Origin: Turneriella sp.
GTDB taxonomy: Bacteria > Spirochaetota > Leptospiria > Turneriellales > Turneriellaceae
Direction: 5' to 3'
NCBI GenBank assembly: GCA_965279515.1
Contig: CBDIID010000003.1
Coordinates: forward strand, 3,904,001 to 3,968,000
Length of the DNA stretch: 64,000 nucleotides
In this document: positions 2,140-11,654 of the stretch, one piece after another
How the letters are laid out: each line of letters starts with the position of its first letter
Position numbering within the stretch: position 1 is the first letter of the stretch
The notes under the pieces: model-generated
The model's input: only the letters and a program-made list of their open reading frames with translations
The model's database searches: none
What the model was told of the DNA's origin: nothing
Position numbers and translations under genes: made by a program

Positions 2140-2803
2140 CCGGAAAGTTTTCTCCGGTTATGGCCAGGCCGTAGTTCGGCGTGATCTCTTTCATGGTGAA
2201 ACCCGCGGCCGCTGCGGTTTGGGTCAATTCTTCGGCGGCGAATATTCTCTGTGTATGTTGTTCTGTCGCCGATACCCGGCCGGTCATTGTCACTGTCGTG
2301 GTTAACAAGCGCAGGTCGGATGCATAGCGGTGCGCAAAACACACCTCGCCGTTCAGCGCATCGAACGTGCGCGTGGTGAGCATCACTGCACGTTCCGGCG
2401 GACAGACATCGAATACATAGACACCCCCTGTTTCGAGAACACGGTGGCATTCGCTGAAGTGCTGCAAGAGTGCCGCGTCGTCGCGCAGGTAATTCAGCGC
2501 CGCGTTGGTCGCCGCCAGCGCCGAAAATGCGGCGTCGCCAAAGGGTAAATGCAACGCATCGGCGCACACGCCCGAGGTTACGTCTTTCAGAAAGGGGAGG
2601 TGTTTATCGACCGAGATGCAGCTGAGGCCCGCGGCGCGCGCCGCGGCGGCGACGTAGCCGGGGCCGCTGAAGAGATCGGCCAGGGGTTTAGAAGAAGGGG
2701 AAAGATGACGCGCTATGAAGGCAAACCAGGCGCTATGGGGGAGATCCCCCATGACCTTGTCGTAATAAGAGTCGAAGACCGAGTACGGGGGGTGGGCCTG
2801 CAC
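2111..2803 (-). CDS. Class I SAM-dependent methyltransferase
   Basis: ADLFSGPG motif I, ADALHLPF, RVLETGGVYVFD. Confidence 0.8.
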   Translation of the reverse strand: MQAHPPYSVFDSYYDKVMGDLPHSAWFAFIARHLSPSSKPLADLFSGPGYVAAAARAAGLSCISVDKHLPFLKDVTSGVCADALHLPFGDAAFSALAATNAALNYLRDDAALLQHFSECHRVLETGGVYVFDVCPPERAVMLTTRTFDALNGEVCFAHRYASDLRLLTTTVTMTGRVSATEQHTQRIFAAEELTQTAAAAGFTMKEITPNYGLAITGENFPVMTYVLCKA

Positions 2804-3438
2804 TACTGCAGTTTAAAATCAGAAATGGCGTCTTTGACGCCCTTCGCCAGGTCGTCGAGTTTCATCAGCTGCTCTTTTTTCTCGGGCGGGGCTTCCTGTA
2901 TCAGTTTATCAAGGCTTTCGCGCATAAACCGCGACATCTGGTCGATGCGCTTGATGCGCGCCTGCAGCCCGTCGAGCATGGTGTTCAGCTGGTCTGCGGT
3001 TTCCTTGAGTTCGTCACCCTGCCTCAGCTTGATGCGCTGTGTCAGGTCGCCGCCGAGCGCTTCTTCAAAAGTACGCTCGATGCGCAGGATTGGACCTGCG
3101 ATTTTGTGCGAGAAAAGAACGAAGAGGATAGTCAGCGACAGCGCCATGACCAGCGCGAGCGAACCGAGGCCCAGCATGCCGTAGAGTTTTACTTTCTGGA
3201 ATACCGGACCCGAGCTCGCATCGACGCCGAGCGTCATCGAGAGCTTCTGTATGAGCTCCGCGGTGTTTTCAAACTGGTATTCTTTCGCGATGCTGTTGAC
3301 AGCAAACATAAAGCCGAAAGCCAGCACCAGCACAAAGAGCATGAGCGGTATAACCGCCTTGAAGATGAACTTACTTTGGAACCTGAAATCGATGACATAC
3401 TGGCGCTTTAGGGCAGAAGGGCGCTTGGCTTCACTCAT
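2803..3438 (-). CDS. Two-TM HAMP-domain membrane protein
   Basis: Two TM helices, then SHKIAGPILRIE..GDLTQRIKLRQGDEL HAMP signature. Confidence 0.75.
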   Translation of the reverse strand: MSEAKRPSALKRQYVIDFRFQSKFIFKAVIPLMLFVLVLAFGFMFAVNSIAKEYQFENTAELIQKLSMTLGVDASSGPVFQKVKLYGMLGLGSLALVMALSLTILFVLFSHKIAGPILRIERTFEEALGGDLTQRIKLRQGDELKETADQLNTMLDGLQARIKRIDQMSRFMRESLDKLIQEAPPEKKEQLMKLDDLAKGVKDAISDFKLQ

Positions 3439-3501
3439 CCCGCTGTATTGAGCCGACCTTTTCAGACGTCAAGGGGGTTTCAAAGGGAATTGCTGGGCCG
3501 G

Positions 3502-4586
3502 CCTTCATTCTCCAATGTACGCAAACCCCTCAAAAGCCCGCCCCAATAGCCGTTGACAGGCAATTTTATACGACTCTAACCGATTCGATCCTGGATCAAT
3601 TCTATCCGAAGTTCTGTTGCAATGAAAAGCTAACCAAAACCAGTTTGACAAGGGTTACTGTCGTACGTTGCCCAACCTGTCACAAGAGCTATTCTAAGCT
3701 TGCCGGAACGCCCCTAAACCACCTTAAAATTGATCGTTGGATGTTTGGCTATCTGTTGAAAGAGGGGCAAATTCAGTACCCCAAGGTTCTAACCATTGCT
3801 GAAATTCGAAAGAGGTTAGGGGTCTCTATTACAACTGCGGTGCGTTTGAAACGCCGATTGCAACTGTTCGCGAGTGATGTAATGCCACGGATGCAGAAGA
3901 AATTCTATACCGATAACAAATTGTTATTCCATGACTTCCAATTTCCTAAGAATCGTGAAACCGATTTAACTTCTATGGTGAAGGATTTGAAAATACCAAG
4001 TGCTGATACTGTTGTATTGTATAGCTGTGGAAGGCTTGCAAACAAAGGACGAAAACGCCATAAACGATCGGGTCAAACAAGTTCAATTTACCGTTCAGAA
4101 TCATTGGGAGCCGATCAGGTTGGAACGCTTGTAAATACATTGGGGGTTAAACAAGGGCCCACATTTTACGATTCAATTCCCAACCAAAAATCCGAAACTA
4201 TCTTCCGATAGTTCACAAGTACATCCCCTGGCATAACCCGCTATTCACAGACGAAGGTTATTCGCTGCCTTCAAGAAATCACAGGACTGTAAATCATTCA
4301 CGAAAGTCTTCGGATAAACGTTTCAAATGGGCACGGAATCGGTTTTCAAAGAATGGAATTCATAACAATGTAGCTGAAGGAAAAAATGGGGTGTTGAAAA
4401 AGGCGTTTGGTGCCCACACCTGGATTAATCCAAAGCATTCAAATCTGTACCTTACGGAGTTCGCTTTTAATGCCAATTTAAGGTATTTCGAATTGGAGGA
4501 TTTGCTGCCGGATGAATCGCGTTCAAATAGTGCGCCGCAATACCAATTGGATGAAAATTGGCAATTGCGCTCATTGAAGAGCAAGA
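3502..4586 (+). mobile_element. IS1595-like insertion sequence at the 3' end of tRNA-Gln
   Basis: Flanked by the 11-bp direct repeat TGCTGGGCCGG (3491-3501 and 4587-4597). Subterminal imperfect IRs: TCTCCAATGTACGCAA vs reverse-complement TCTTCAATGAGCGCAA (13/16). Contains a transposase. Confidence 0.7.
3546..4586 (+). pseudogene. IS1595-family (ISXO2-like) DDE transposase, frameshifted
   Basis: Zn-ribbon (YPKFCC..RCPTC) and HTH in one frame up to a stop at 4211. The -1 frame from ~4202 continues LPIVHKYIP..FTDEGY..HRTVNHS..IHNNVAEG..LKK..HTWINPKHSNLYLTEFAFNAN, the IS1595 catalytic pattern. Start codon unclear. Confidence 0.75.
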
Positions 4587-4588
4587 TG

Positions 4589-4660
4589 CTGGGCCGGAAG
4601 GGGTCGAACCTTCGCATGGCGGAATCAAAATCCGCTGCCTTACCACTTGGCTACGGCCCA
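4589..4660 (-). tRNA. tRNA-Gln (anticodon TTG)
   Basis: Reverse complement TGGGCCGTAGCCAAGTGGTAAGGCAGCGGATTTTGATTCCGCCATGCGAAGGTTCGACCCCTTCCGGCCCAG folds as a cloverleaf with GGTTCGA T-loop; complete CCA not encoded. Confidence 0.97.
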
Positions 4661-5659
4661 ATATTTCGAAACGGTATCACCTGCCAGGTCCCGCCGAGCC
4701 TCGCAGAGAGCAAAGCCTTGAGAGAAGTCAGGTTGCGCATCGGTATTTCTGCATCGGACGCGGCGAATAAAGCCGCTCCCGAACCCGTCATACCGAGCAC
4801 CCAGGCACCGGGAAAAAACTGCTTTGCCGTGCGGGCAAGTACAGTCTTAGCCTCAGAGAGCAAACGGCTCTGGGCGGGGAATACCGCCTGCGCCGCCGCG
4901 TCAAAGTCGTTTCGAAGCACTCTGACACCGCTGATGGGTTCGTCCGAATAGGGGATTTCGTTGAGGCGTAAAGCCAAATTAGATTGCGCAGACGCGGCAT
5001 TTTTCGCCGCCTCTGCCTCAACCTCCGGCAAATTCCAGCGGCGCACCTCGGCGAACATTTGCCCCGTCGGAAAGCCAAAACCGGGCACACAGATCCATCC
5101 GCCTAACCGCGGAATGCTCACTGCGGTGAGCTCATGCCCGACACCCTGGAGAAGCGCCGCCTGCCCCTGGAGACCATATTTCAGAAAAAACGGGATATCT
5201 GCGCCGAGCCTTTCTGTCTGTTTTATGAATTCGGGCGGAAGATTTTCAGCGCTGCCTGCCGCAGCCCAGAGCGCGGCGATGAGCGCTGCAGCGTCCGCTG
5301 AGGCACCGCCCAGACCGCCGGGTGAGGGTATCTGTTTTTCAACAGAAATCTGAAGCGCAGGCAGTGCGAGCGCGCACTCTTGTTTAAGATAAGAGCGCAT
5401 CACCCCGAGGGTTTTGAGGAGCAGGGGATTTGTAAGGGTGCCGGAGGCGATCTCGCGCCGGCGCGCAGGGCTGAGGTCAGTGGGCCAGCTGTGTTTCACC
5501 GCTTCCGCAGCGGCGGCCGTCACCGAAATACGATCGAAGACAGAGACCGGTACAAAGATGCTTTCGAGCCGGTGATAGCCGTTTTTGTAGCGTCCTGTGA
5601 TGCTCAGGCCGAGATTAATTTTTGCCGGCGCGCTAAAGGCAAGCGGTAGACGCATGCCG

Positions 5660-5667
<8 letters not shown>
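4651..5667 (-). CDS. ispE: 4-diphosphocytidyl-2-C-methyl-D-erythritol kinase
   Basis: APAKINLGL, KQIPSPGGLGGASADAA, LGADIPFF, MTGSGAALF motifs; ispE followed by tRNA-Gln is a common synteny. Confidence 0.95.
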
Positions 5668-7011
<1,344 letters not shown>

Positions 7012-7018
7012 TTAGAAT

Positions 7019-7912
7019 ATGAATATTTTTATCACTGGAATTGCCGGCTTTGTTGGTCAGCATTTGCGTGATTATTTTCTCAAGAAAGGATTTTCTGTAA
7101 CGGGTATTGCGAAGACGCAGACGTCGTATGCTCATATTTGTGATATAAATGACACTTCGCGAATGGCTGACCTGCTTTTGCAAGAGCAGCCAGATCGGAT
7201 TATCCACTTGGCCGCTATTTCAAACGTCGCCGGCAGTTTTGAGACAGAACGTCTTACTCACGAGATAAACTACATGGGTACTCTCTCGCTATTGCAAGCG
7301 GCACGAAAAGCGACACCAAAAGCCCGGATATTATTTGTTTCTAGTGGCCAGGTTTATGAATCGGCTTCCTTTCCAATAACCGAAACGGGTAAATTGGAAC
7401 CTCTCTCGCCTTATGCGTCATCGAAACTAGCGGCGGAAGTCTTGTGCCTTGAATTTTATTGTACCAAGAAAATGCATACAGTTGTAGCAAGATCGTTCAA
7501 CCATATCGGATCTGGACAGGACGAAGGCTTCTTTATTCCCTCAACACTTAAGCAGATAAAGACGGCTTTATCATCAGGGCAAAAAGAGCTTGTGCTCAAT
7601 GTCGGCAACTTGACTGCAATTAGGGATTTTCTCAGCGTGCAAGATGTTTGCGAAGCCTATTCGGTGCTGCTTGAAAAAGGCCAGCCAGGCAAGGCCTACA
7701 ACGTAGCATCGGGTAAAGGATACTCTATTCGCGAGGTCATAGATATATTTGCCGAAGTTTCCGGTTTGAAGATAACGATCAATCAAGATCCAGCAAGGGT
7801 GCGTACAGTTGAGAAGCCGAGTTTAATTGGCAATGCAAGTGAACTTATTAATCTGGGTTGGCGTCAAAGTCAGCAGTTCCGTGATATTCTGAAAAAACTT
7901 ATACACCCTTAA
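7019..7912 (+). CDS. rmd: GDP-4-keto-6-deoxyhexose reductase (Rmd-like extended SDR)
   Basis: ITGIAGFVG, PYASSK, RSFNHIG, VGNLTAIRDF; directly downstream of gmd. Confidence 0.75.
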   Translation: MNIFITGIAGFVGQHLRDYFLKKGFSVTGIAKTQTSYAHICDINDTSRMADLLLQEQPDRIIHLAAISNVAGSFETERLTHEINYMGTLSLLQAARKATPKARILFVSSGQVYESASFPITETGKLEPLSPYASSKLAAEVLCLEFYCTKKMHTVVARSFNHIGSGQDEGFFIPSTLKQIKTALSSGQKELVLNVGNLTAIRDFLSVQDVCEAYSVLLEKGQPGKAYNVASGKGYSIREVIDIFAEVSGLKITINQDPARVRTVEKPSLIGNASELINLGWRQSQQFRDILKKLIHP

Positions 7913-7925
7913 ATCTTGCTTGTTT

Positions 7926-9170
7926 TTAAGCGAAGTGGATTTCAGGCAATGGGAAAAGTAATTTGCCACCGGTGGCTAGAAACTCCCTCTCTCGCTCCAG
8001 TATGTTTTTTTCAAAATGCCATGGCAAAACAACAAATACATCTGGCTTAAGCTTTCTCGCTTCGGCCTCGGATATGATCGGAATTTTTGTTGCAGGTGTA
8101 AAAGCTCCGAATTTATCTTCGTTTACTTCAGCAATATATGGCATGAGTTCTGTGGTAATATTGCAATATTGTAATACGACATTGCCTTTAGTTGATGCTC
8201 CATATCCAAAAACTTTTTTGCCTTGTTTTTTCAGATCAACGAGCGTTTCATAGAATTCTTTCCTGTGCTTTTCTACCCGTTCTTTAAAGTGCTGGTATAC
8301 TTCCATTTGACCGTATCCATCATTTTTTTCTTTTTCCATTAAGCTCAATATGGCCTTTTCATTGATTGGGTGCTTGCTTTTTTCTTTTGCCACCGTAATA
8401 GAAAAGCTACCGCCGTTGACATCATTTAGCTCCACATTAATGATTTTAAAACCAACTTTTTTTGCCATGTAGTCAATTTGGCGTAGGGCATAGTATTCAA
8501 GATGCTCATGACAAACCGTGTCATAGGCATTCATTTCAATCATGGTCGGGAGATAACTTTGCTCAAAGGTCCACGTCCCTTCGTCATCTAAGATATTATG
8601 AATATCTTGTACAAAACGGATCGGTTCTTCGAGATCATAGAACATGGCAATTGAAGTTACAATTTTGGCCTTTTCATTTCCAAACACTGACTTGAAATTA
8701 GTTTCGGAGAAAAAGTCCGTTACGAGCTTTATGTACTCTGGATAGAAATGCCGGAATTTTTCCGCCGACGGATCAAAGCCGGCATACCGCCCTAGGTCTG
8801 GAGGGTAGGCTTTTAAAGTCGTTGCGTCGTTACAGCCAATATCGATGACGATATCTCCCTTTTTTATGGGATATTTCTGTAGCAGATTAGAAATCTTACC
8901 GTGTAAGTGCTTAACCATAGACAAATTGAGTCCGGATCGGTAACCGTATGTTTCGCCATACATACCATCCAGCTTATATGTATGTTTTAATTGAACTAAG
9001 CCGCAACCGCCATGGCTTTCACTGCATTTTACAAGCTCCAGAGGCATCGTATCCACCTGCTGATTCTCATTTTTTGGAAATATCCCCGTAAGGGCTTGTA
9101 CGCCCAAATCGAGGATGCTGCTAAGATGCGGACTATTGCATATGCGACAGTGTTCAACCGCTTGGTACAT
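7926..9170 (-). CDS. NDP-hexose C-methyltransferase
   Basis: N-terminal CRIC..C..GC zinc site, DIGCNDAT, CHEHLEYY, GYGASTKG, VLPWHF..FPLP C-terminal domain. Confidence 0.88.
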   Translation of the reverse strand: MYQAVEHCRICNSPHLSSILDLGVQALTGIFPKNENQQVDTMPLELVKCSESHGGCGLVQLKHTYKLDGMYGETYGYRSGLNLSMVKHLHGKISNLLQKYPIKKGDIVIDIGCNDATTLKAYPPDLGRYAGFDPSAEKFRHFYPEYIKLVTDFFSETNFKSVFGNEKAKIVTSIAMFYDLEEPIRFVQDIHNILDDEGTWTFEQSYLPTMIEMNAYDTVCHEHLEYYALRQIDYMAKKVGFKIINVELNDVNGGSFSITVAKEKSKHPINEKAILSLMEKEKNDGYGQMEVYQHFKERVEKHRKEFYETLVDLKKQGKKVFGYGASTKGNVVLQYCNITTELMPYIAEVNEDKFGAFTPATKIPIISEAEARKLKPDVFVVLPWHFEKNILEREREFLATGGKLLFPLPEIHFA

Positions 9171-9177
9171 ACGTAGC

Positions 9178-9191
9178 TTTTTTTTTTTTTT
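9178..9191. repeat. 14-nt homopolymer (T14 on +, A14 on coding strand)
   Basis: Counted directly; lies 7 nt upstream of the C-methyltransferase ATG. Confidence 0.95.
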
Positions 9192-9209
9192 AATCGAGTG
9201 TCAATGAGA

Positions 9210-11654
9210 TTATGGTTCGACAAGTTCAGAGAGCAACCTGTTGACGTTTTTCTTAAATTTCGCAGGATCCCCGAGTTGCGCGATCTTTTCGCGGATACGC
9301 TCCTGCGCTTTGATTGTTTGCTTCCTATTATGAAGAGCTTGTACTAATTTTGCCTTGAAATCTGCGGCATTTCCAACTTCAGCTAAATGCAGATATTCGA
9401 TTTGATCAGGAATTTCTCGGGTGATTAATGGGATATTTGATGCAACAATGGGTACATTCAAGGCGAGAGCTTCGTTTACCTGGGTAGGGAAATTTCCTTC
9501 CAGTTCGCTCGTGAATACTAGACATGCGGCGCGTTTGTATAACCAGGAAAGAGTAGCATCGCTGACATCTTGAACTATGTGGACGTATTTTTCGAGGTCC
9601 AAAGATTTCAACAAGCCTTGGTTTTCGGGGGAAAGATCAGATGTTAGTACGAGGCAAAAGTTTGTATATTTTGACTCCTTGTGTAATAATTGCAGAGCTT
9701 TCAACAAGACATCTAATCTTTTGCTGGGGCGATCTCGGGTGGGGTAAAATAGATAATCCAGATGCTGGACTGTCTCCATTACGCTTCGATTCGGTTTACT
9801 AGTGCGGTCAAAATTACCTTGTAGGTTTGGCAATGGGAAGTAACGTATTTTCTCTACAGGTGGAAAAAGTTCAGTTTGCGGTAGGTATTCCTGACTATAT
9901 TTGGAGTTTGTCAGTATTAGTTTTGCTCCTGCGACAATTTTCTGGCCAGTAGCTAGATGTCTTTTCTCCCCTTTAAAATCTTTTTTCCGGGGATAAAAAT
10001 GTGGTATGTAGTCAGGTAAGTAGAGCAGATATGATTTATTCAGCTCAGCAGCTTCTGGGAAAGCATAGTAATGTGGTACAATAATGCCATCAATGTTGTC
10101 ATCATTTTTTAAGGCTGATAGAATCTTATCTGGCCGAATCTGAGCGATAAGTATTCTGAGCGCGTCTTGTATACCGCACCATATTATGGTCTTTTTCATA
10201 ACCACGATGATGCCTAGCTTTGCGAATGATATAATCTTTTTTAACGGAGGCTTTGGGAGGTTTCTTATGTGATGCCGAATCGGATATTGAATGATTTTAT
10301 CCACAATTCTGAAATCCGCGCCGCCGACATCAAAAACCTGGCATTGTATTTCCGAACCGGGCATATTGAAGAAGCCATGAATTCTCTGGATCATGCTTGA
10401 CCGGCTTGTAATTATCACCTCAAAATTCCCGGATTTGATCAGTGCTTGAGCTACCTGCCGCATTACCCGACAAATACCTTCTACGGCAAAATAGCTGCCT
10501 TCATGGAATAGCACAGGTTCACCGGGGAAATGCATAAATATCGCCAGCCGTCTTTTTCCGGAAGTTGGTTTCTCCGGAAAATAGATGAATTTAGGTCGTG
10601 ATACCGTATCGGATTCAATTATCCGCTGCAAAACCCTGTCAAATACCGGCCATACCTTCCGCGGAATATATCGATCAACGACGCTTTTTTGTGAAGCGAC
10701 GATCGCCTGAATGAATTTTTTATCTCCTTCTAAAAGGCGCTCACATTTTCCTTTCGCCTCATCTTCGCTAAATGCCCGCCCGGGAGAATTAACCGGCATC
10801 ATTCTGGAGAGCAGAGAACCGTCAAGAAAAACGACCGGGGCACCGAGAATCATCATTTCGATAGGCTGTAAGAAACAAACAGTTCTGGAGGGGTGTGTAT
10901 AGAGAGCGCCTTTTGATTGGAGGAACTGCTCTAATTGTTGACTCCGCGGGAGGGTGCCAACGATTTGGGGATCTTGGGCGTGGCTCGTTTGAACTCCATA
11001 GTAACGAAAGTGTTTTTCTGGAAAATGGCGCTTAAGATATTTGTAGTGGTGGCGAAAATAGGGGTCCCTAATGTTCGGCGATGTCAGACAAATTTCTGGG
11101 GTTAAAGCTCCATGTTGGTTCCAAGATCCCTGAAGATTAATAATGTCATCAGTGACACAATAGGGGACAACTTCTCCCATTTCTCTTAACCACAGATGTT
11201 CTTCTTCTAATATTTCCATGGAGGTAGGTAAGTAAAAGAAATTTTTGATTCCGGAAAATAATTCCAGGGCACCGACTCTCTGCAATTCATCGCTAACAAG
11301 GTCTTTCAGTCCGTATGCCCGAAAAATAACCTTACCGTGAAAAACCGAAAGGACATCCTTAAGGATATTGGGGGAACTAGGAATGATAACGCAATCAAAG
11401 TACTCGTTCAGCATTTGGGCCATCTCGGCATTAATTGGATTATGATAGAAGTTATATTTGCTCAATTTATCATGAATTTTAGGTGGAAGAGTGGTCGATG
11501 AAGGTACCCACTCCCTGATTACCGATTGATCATTGACTTTGCTAAGGTAAGGTGGCGTAAATACTTCGTAGCCCAGCATCCGGAGACGAGCGACCTCGGT
11601 TTGAAGCAAGATTTTATGAGCACAGATAAAAAAAATTCGGCGATTCTTTTTCAT
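9210..11654 (-). CDS. Multidomain glycosyltransferase (C-terminal GT4/GT-B)
   Basis: YLFYPT..KRL..LYKRAACLVFTSELEGNF..EALALNVPIVASNIP; the N-terminal half looks like a second degenerate GT-B domain. Confidence 0.8.
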   Translation of the reverse strand: MKKNRRIFFICAHKILLQTEVARLRMLGYEVFTPPYLSKVNDQSVIREWVPSSTTLPPKIHDKLSKYNFYHNPINAEMAQMLNEYFDCVIIPSSPNILKDVLSVFHGKVIFRAYGLKDLVSDELQRVGALELFSGIKNFFYLPTSMEILEEEHLWLREMGEVVPYCVTDDIINLQGSWNQHGALTPEICLTSPNIRDPYFRHHYKYLKRHFPEKHFRYYGVQTSHAQDPQIVGTLPRSQQLEQFLQSKGALYTHPSRTVCFLQPIEMMILGAPVVFLDGSLLSRMMPVNSPGRAFSEDEAKGKCERLLEGDKKFIQAIVASQKSVVDRYIPRKVWPVFDRVLQRIIESDTVSRPKFIYFPEKPTSGKRRLAIFMHFPGEPVLFHEGSYFAVEGICRVMRQVAQALIKSGNFEVIITSRSSMIQRIHGFFNMPGSEIQCQVFDVGGADFRIVDKIIQYPIRHHIRNLPKPPLKKIISFAKLGIIVVMKKTIIWCGIQDALRILIAQIRPDKILSALKNDDNIDGIIVPHYYAFPEAAELNKSYLLYLPDYIPHFYPRKKDFKGEKRHLATGQKIVAGAKLILTNSKYSQEYLPQTELFPPVEKIRYFPLPNLQGNFDRTSKPNRSVMETVQHLDYLFYPTRDRPSKRLDVLLKALQLLHKESKYTNFCLVLTSDLSPENQGLLKSLDLEKYVHIVQDVSDATLSWLYKRAACLVFTSELEGNFPTQVNEALALNVPIVASNIPLITREIPDQIEYLHLAEVGNAADFKAKLVQALHNRKQTIKAQERIREKIAQLGDPAKFKKNVNRLLSELVEP

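Follow-up and report, generated by a model that had tools for sequence, protein, structure and literature searches.

In a window of 64,000 nucleotides from a Turneriella sp. genome, a short transposase-encoding unit lies directly at the 3′ end of a tRNA-Gln gene. The locus raises the question of what was inserted there, which enzyme selected the site and by which route the unit arrived. The initial annotation, made from the window sequence alone, had proposed a minimal IS1595-like transposon that targets tRNA-Gln and regenerates its 3′ end.

Ends and target site of the window copy

The 11-mer TGCTGGGCCGG, on which the proposal was based, is indeed present at both 3491–3501 and 4587–4597 beside the tRNA-Gln gene and occurs three times in the 4.9-Mb genome. 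Its recurrence within 1200 nt has an empirical chance of 0.0022, which is still small but approximately 7-fold higher than the 1200/4^11 originally estimated. The imperfect subterminal inverted repeats (13 of 16 positions) were also confirmed. The target gene, a tRNA-Gln(ttg) on the minus strand (4588–4660 by ARAGORN; 4589–4660 by Rfam), is the only tRNA-Gln among the 39 tRNA genes of the genome.

The true ends of the unit were set by aligning both element ends on a conserved inner motif. The resulting target-site duplication is 8 bp long (CTGGGCCG, 3493–3500 and 4589–4596) and corresponds to positions 66–73 of tRNA-Gln, and the three additional matching bases of the 11-mer are element ends (TG at 4587–4588 and G at 3501). 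A length of 8 bp rather than 11 bp follows from three observations. A distant relative at tRNA-Gln (L150, 62% identical) is flanked on each side by exactly CTGGGCCG although its right end differs, the near relatives L146–L148 begin at the same G as the window element, and all solo or tandem copies for which both flanks are available show matching 8-mers when read in a 24-bp register. Duplications of 11 or 9 bp are ruled out by L150 and by the paired right ends, and the 10–11 bp initially proposed is thus replaced by an ordinary 8-bp duplication. The window copy has terminal inverted repeats (TIRs) of 24 bp with an 8-bp duplication, and so do four metagenome copies and the five further genome copies, solo or in tandem, of which both flanks are available.

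The window element aligns with L146 from end to end at 85%. An exact empty site, sought in relatives, was found in the genome G001, which follows the window sequence as far as 3501, resumes at 4587 and has a single copy of the short direct repeat. In six other relatives, tRNA-Gln is followed by unrelated DNA. The insert is therefore the 1.1-kb unit alone (Table 1). A contig from another study (X2, record 10) contains a ∼91% relative that begins at 3489 behind the same HAMP gene. Window positions 3300–4800 gave no promoter signal beyond the level expected by chance. The GHMP kinase gene upstream of the tRNA is presumably ispE-like; it lies on the strand of tRNA-Gln, and its stop codon falls within the 5′ end of that gene (4651–4660).

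Table 1. Coordinates of the inserted unit, its reading frames and the adjoining genes in the window.
Feature	Position	Strand	Evidence
HAMP-domain gene; directly follows the tRNA in the empty site	2803..3438	-	
Left target-site duplication CTGGGCCG, copy of tRNA-Gln positions 66–73	3493..3500	+	
Solo copy of the repeat unit, 1088 bp, 43% GC vs 57–58% in flanks	3501..4588	+	G001 empty site; L146 alignment
Left 24-bp TIR, 14/24 identical to right; clade consensus N13 plus AATCCTCGCAA	3501..3524	+	
Transposase first frame, residues 17–250 of full-length P0260 (92%)	3501..4211	+	
Cysteine pairs of first frame; first catalytic Asp codon	near 3612 and 3666; 4005	+	
Frameshift, one base missing; first-frame stop at 4209–4211	4199..4204	+	
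Transposase second frame, residues 252–377 of P0260 (93%)	4205..4588	+	
Asp codon; Glu codon of second frame	4250; 4376	+	
Right 24-bp TIR; last two bases supply C74-A75 behind the tRNA	4565..4588	-	
Right target-site duplication, tRNA-Gln acceptor 3′ strand and discriminator	4589..4596	+	
tRNA-Gln(ttg), intact target gene, convergent with transposase	4589..4660	-	ARAGORN, Rfam
GHMP kinase gene, upstream of tRNA	4651..5667	-	

Transposase of the window copy

A single IS1595-type DDE transposase is encoded between the repeats, as initially annotated. It matches the Pfam domain DDE_Tnp_IS1595 (PF12762) with an E value of 1e-7 and 32.6 bits against a cut-off of 27, and it is frameshifted near 4199–4204. 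Scores for the NCBIfam model NF033547 (25.6 and 25.0 bits) are below the curated cut-off of 75. The transposase stands alone, and no ORF between the repeats fits a tyrosine or serine integrase, also in agreement with the initial annotation. A Pfam match suggesting TnsD homology (E 0.031) was under the cut-off and was rejected.

The window transposase has no start codon before 3645, and its second frame runs into the antisense tRNA in place of a 184-aa tail. The bases at the frameshift are also found in contigs of runs X20 and X21, possibly the source data of this genome, and an error of the final assembly was rejected on these grounds. The tail and the partner gene, which accompany the transposase in relatives, are both absent from the window's genome (G000), and the window copy is therefore an orphan. 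Because the unit lacks a start codon, the C-terminal domain and the partner, repair of the frameshift alone would probably not produce an active element, and the minimal autonomous transposon of the initial annotation does not hold. Judged by its sequence, the window copy looks like a solo scar that has no start, tail or partner and is frameshifted.

Family distribution and target choice

The family forms a discrete set of 176 clusters. Within the class it is present in 108 of 190 genomes, and within the phylum in 73 of 401. The catalytic residues D153, D235 and E277 are invariant among 104 sequences. A quick tree was built from 88 rows, with frameshifted or partial copies other than the window copy excluded, and the window falls into a 17-row clade (SH-aLRT 99). 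All ten short copies of this clade abut the 3′ end of a tRNA or tmRNA gene in antisense orientation (Gln, Asn, Tyr in three copies, Leu(gag) in three, Leu(cag) and tmRNA), which upholds the proposal of a tRNA-targeting DDE element that leaves the tRNA intact. The six long copies and the cut copy L003 all have a tRNA-type 8-mer on the left flank; the 8-mers of G004 and L003 were assigned by likeness to known tRNA ends, not from a tRNA of their own.

Copies with 85–86% identity to the window element are located at tRNA-Asn and tRNA-Arg(ccg), indicating that one lineage uses several tRNAs at the same position. Such near-identical copies do not support a specificity for tRNA-Gln, and the use of several tRNAs at one position points to the shared T-arm as the probable recognized feature. 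Homologue sites comprise Gln, Asn, Arg, Tyr, Leu and Ser tRNAs and tmRNA, including a broken copy at tRNA-Ser, and the duplication in tRNA-Tyr covers positions 67–74. At eight different RNA genes, the duplication directly adjoins the TIRs. Of eight metagenome loci, six adjoin tRNA targets; the other two are a circle junction and a weak match. A script assigned 51 database proteins of the clade to those running into an antisense tRNA (19), those running into the next copy (6), tailed proteins (10) and others (16), and most of the 16 fit the three defined classes by eye. Database entries annotate the copies as plain transposases or hypothetical proteins.

A second clade is located at tRNA-Val and tRNA-Asp, and other, sister clades adjoin the stop codons of protein-coding genes that lie on the opposite strand. 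The target genes of the latter are presumably fliG-, flgG-, bamA- and pfkA-like. At one stop codon of the pfkA-like type (L001:3736-6068; G000:C3 ∼3705700-3708100), two paralogous units of the same family with 75% identity are arranged in tandem with GTTATTCAACT at all three junctions of this non-tRNA target. In another genome, at least nine copies, two tailed ones among them, are stacked at one site (L123–L125; G051:C2 1603000-1646500).

A guide-like copy of the target inside the element was considered and rejected, as the longest matches in three tRNA-Tyr elements (10–12 nt) are comparable to shuffled maxima (12–13 nt). Viral contigs contained no relative of the family. No description of the family was found in the open literature searched, and the available parts of three Leptospira genome papers (PMC3493377, PMC1936430 and PMC4758666) do not mention it. 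The available part of PMC4758666 cites an excising 54-kb island in serovar Lai.

Paired direct repeats and cargo

Relatives of the window element also occur as pairs of direct repeats of 1.06–1.65 kb that are separated by 10–73 kb and enclose cargo. Candidate pairs were selected by eye from match tables, and 20 of 23 were counted; the other three were dropped because they are not true pairs (79%, 94% partial and 87% partial). Every pair is direct, with the long copy upstream. The two repeats are 100% identical in 17 of the 20 pairs and only 91–98% identical in three, and in one tRNA-Tyr pair (90.7%) the differences are spread along the length. Tandem neighbours are often only 65–66% identical and were not found as partners within one pair. 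The nearest genome relative of the window copy (G007, at tmRNA) is a pair that spans ∼30 kb and is cut by a contig end.

The outer flanks of the pairs display a duplication of at least 8 bp in 16 of 19 testable cases by script, or in 17 of 19 when the boundary of one pair is corrected; it is absent in two pairs (G111 and G156). None of the 20 pairs has a duplication at the inner flanks, where most pairs instead have conserved junctions (CAT before and AT after).

Among the cargo genes are restriction systems, dynamins, Rhs, DNA polymerase B, ArdC, DUF932, ParB and mutagenic polymerases. In five paired elements, 126 of 169 ORFs were scanned, and these contained no tyrosine or serine recombinase, relaxase, T4SS or virion family and no TnsB, TnsC or TniQ/TnsD gene. 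A G2P-like (rolling-circle) Rep was found in only two elements; a candidate Rep gene at L087:9435-10466 has no Pfam or NCBIfam match and was discarded. One paired element contains a 532-aa reverse transcriptase (L090:6119-7714).

Start, tail and partner of the transposase gene

The whole transposase consists of 561 residues and is encoded entire only by a circular form. Its gene extends beyond both TIRs, by ∼16 codons on the left (start) side and by ∼180 codons on the right. In the pairs, the upstream copy reads across the right TIR into a conserved tail of ∼180–250 residues. An in-frame ATG outside the left TIR is found in 18 of 20 downstream copies and in 2 of 20 upstream copies (only ATG was counted). 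This ATG is located at −48 in all three tRNA-Tyr pairs, and the short leader before the left TIR is conserved between relatives. Two exceptions are G065, with an ATG inside the repeat, and G101, in which no ATG was found. The same forms are observed for proteins of the window lineage: P0004 has a tail without a start and is preceded by the tRNA-Gln duplication, P0259 has a start without a tail, and P0260 has both. Five database proteins contain both start and tail. The 787-residue protein P0016 combines the full-length transposase in frame with an upstream HNH/AP2 endonuclease region.

In a predicted model of the tailed protein (pLDDT 92), the core (residues 119–320) adopts an integrase-type (RNase H-like) fold (Z 11.4, rmsd 3.2, 132 aligned), and residues 421–508 of the tail region form a predicted winged helix (Z 7.5, rmsd 2.9, 79 aligned; a Z below 8 reflects a common arrangement). 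Foldseek yielded no match at E 0.001, and an Atlas search with the tail yielded only HTH leads (0.78). A fold of the tail alone predicted without an alignment was poor (pLDDT 52) and was discarded. After the tail, a partner gene encodes an HNH-fold protein of 95–110 residues (Atlas 0.96), which was identified in 8 of 9 Turneriella-type interiors and in 35 rows across loci and whose nuclease residues are often degenerate. Conservation across the family extends to both the tail and this HNH-fold partner.

Circle-type junctions

The order expected of a circle, with the end of the interior, the repeat and the start of the interior on one contig, is found in L151, which contains the complete frame. 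G067:C2 (61,003 bp) has the same type of junction and closes on itself through a 4073-codon frame. In KF114878.1, which is linear in GenBank, the gene is split across the two ends of the record. These junctions make a free circular form likely and stop short of proof, since assemblers that collapse a 1.1-kb repeat, or tandem elements, can yield the same junctions; G067:C11 starts exactly at a second copy. KF114878.1 (L154) was deposited as a Leptospira phage; it has no annotated virion genes, contains two annotated tyrosine recombinases and is bounded by a transposase of the family. The record may represent a member of the family instead of a phage.

Integration route and alternatives

We favour a route, with a probability of approximately 70%, in which an enzyme made from the circle forms a cointegrate at the tRNA 3′ end and thereby parts its own start from its tail, and host recombination leaves a solo scar. 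Comparison of the copies defines their anatomy and targeting, and the reaction pathway of cointegration and recombinational excision is proposed from this arrangement. The free form would be a 10–70-kb unit with one TIR-bounded repeat, as seen in the assembled junctions. The complete protein, perhaps with its partner, would recognize the T-arm end that tRNA and tmRNA genes have in common and would cut with an 8-bp stagger at positions 66–73 (67–74 in tRNA-Tyr). Replicative, cointegrate-type transposition would then produce the order target, repeat, cargo, repeat and target, with the 8-bp duplication outside the repeats and the tRNA kept whole. As the sequences of the pairs show, the upstream repeat retains the tail and loses the start, and the downstream repeat retains the start and loses the tail. 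Because start and tail are parted between the repeats, integration probably switches the gene off. Homologous recombination of the host between the repeats would release the circle, restore the gene and leave a solo repeat with neither gene end, similar to a solo LTR. New arrivals would stack at the same tRNA, and the window copy would have gained its frameshift later.

The 100% identity of 17 of 20 pairs is expected from duplication during integration and argues against a two-step route, in which the circle-made transposase inserts only the 1.1-kb unit and circles later recombine with a resident copy; on this route, the unit in the window would represent a primary insertion and not an excision scar. 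That tandem neighbours of 65–66% identity were never seen as partners in one pair also disfavours this route. Recombination with an older resident copy would nevertheless fit the three pairs with 91–98% identity, including the tRNA-Tyr pair at 90.7%, solo and tandem copies are common, and IS1595 elements are thought to use copy-out circles according to the available part of PMC5704250. The two-step route is thus unlikely as the principal explanation, and both it and the favoured cointegration can operate.

A minimal autonomous IS of tRNA ends, with pairs that are ordinary compound transposons and a tail that is an incidental fusion, would account for the TIRs, 8-bp duplication and DDE triad all residing inside the unit and for the existence of solo copies with open frames. 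We consider it highly improbable, given that no start codon is found within the unit, that tail and HNH-fold partner are retained throughout the family, that the inner junctions are conserved (CAT/AT in most pairs) without a duplication and that all pairs are direct with the long copy upstream. The tRNA 3′ ends are the classic sites of integrases, and one Leptospira element (KF114878.1) contains tyrosine recombinases, as would suit a unit that is the passenger of a decayed tyrosine- or serine-integrase island responsible for the tRNA duplication. The exact empty site in G001 and the homologues at varied tRNA genes and tmRNA led us to reject this reading here. The empty site largely refutes it, nothing separates the duplication from the TIRs at eight different RNA genes, and the 126 of 169 ORFs scanned in five paired elements contain no such recombinase; a passenger origin is barely credible.

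Comparison with known systems

LTR retroelements have long direct repeats and leave solo LTRs, and Ty3 inserts at tRNA genes. Integrases of the SSV1/pTN3 type also use tRNA targets. Tn7 and Tn7-like elements are directed by TnsD/TniQ to glmS or tRNA ends, and Tn7 generates a 5-bp duplication and lacks long direct repeats. The family resembles LTR elements and Ty3, by analogy only, in its long direct repeats, solo scars, tRNA targeting and integrase-type fold, but its repeat encodes the enzyme core and no reverse transcription step is implied. As with Tn7, insertion by a DDE enzyme is directed to the 3′ ends of conserved genes and has a single orientation; unlike Tn7, the family has no TnsB/C/D set among the ORFs scanned.

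According to the available part of PMC5704250, IS1595 elements typically have TIRs of ∼25 bp, an 8-bp duplication, low target specificity and a gene inside the TIRs. The family shares the DDE_Tnp_IS1595 domain, N-terminal cysteine pairs and helical region of this group (including MTnSag1 and tISCpe8) as well as a similar TIR length (24 bp) and the same duplication length. It differs in its fixed target, in a gene that crosses both TIRs, in the winged-helix tail and partner gene and in an NCBIfam score (25.6) below the cut-off of 75. Direct IS repeats around cargo with an 8-bp duplication on the outer flanks only are also described for IS6/IS26 (available part of PMC7986276), and RecA-resolved cointegrates, one-IS circles and arrays are described for IS6/IS26 and the Burkholderia IS2-like megacircle (available parts of PMC7986276 and PMC6350997). 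However, IS6/IS26 transposases belong to another family, with only PF12762 matched here, and the same sources present a whole gene in the IS with no fixed chromosomal target and no partner gene. In the suicidal integrases of SSV1/pTN3, the gene is split on integration and whole when free (available part of PMC8371274), and in the family described here the free form comes from assemblies only. Those enzymes are tyrosine recombinases with a single internal split, exclusively archaeal per that review, whereas the enzyme here is a bacterial DDE protein with a duplicated core and both ends separated. TnGBS/p-MULT are likewise large DDE-mobilized elements with a target class, in their case sigmaA promoters, but they use a Mutator-like enzyme and 5′ targets, and no duplicated transposase unit is described in the available part of PMC3942029.

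There is an even chance that the family constitutes a new class of integrative elements in Leptospirae, a two-gene machine that is whole only on the circle, reads a gene-end feature and forms cointegrates of 10–70 kb while splitting its own gene. The two genes of such a class would be the DDE transposase with its winged-helix tail and the HNH-fold partner with degenerate nuclease residues. The feature read would be the T-arm for tRNA and tmRNA, and the target would change readily in evolution between several tRNAs, tmRNA and the stop codons of different protein genes. By analogy, the family may be likened to IS26 in cointegration, to suicidal integrases in switching and to Tn7 in site choice; it departs in a defining feature from each of IS26, suicidal integrases, Tn7 and IS1595 proper. 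If the class is real, its enzyme would be the first suicidal integrase known from bacteria and based on DDE chemistry, and the system would offer a compact tool for placing large DNA at safe-harbour sites. Each trait has a precedent on its own, and the novelty would reside in the architecture: the combination of fixed safe-harbour targeting by an IS-sized DDE enzyme, LTR-like scar-leaving repeats and a gene that is complete only in the free form was not found in the literature searched. Given its presence in 108 of 190 genomes of the class, the family may be a main, overlooked entry route for 10–70-kb islands in Leptospira-type genomes. The means by which a single small transposase locates many tRNA ends, always at the same position, can be tested directly.

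Other loci in the genome of the window

A decayed right end of the same family lies directly behind tRNA-Asn with its right TIR in register (L002:1824-1995; G000:C3 ∼3420320-3420500). None of the 39 tRNA genes of the genome encodes CCA; behind the discriminator, 20 of them have CA and the majority of the remainder AA, and the targets seen for the clade of the window are all of the CA class. Behind tRNA-Arg(tcg), at G000:C3:1512999-1513330, part of the gene is repeated once and its 3′ end recurs twice more, an arrangement that looks like a decayed integration site. Within the window, positions 6031–11654 contain a low-GC cluster of nucleotide-sugar and glycosyltransferase-like genes, possibly an acquired surface-polysaccharide locus.
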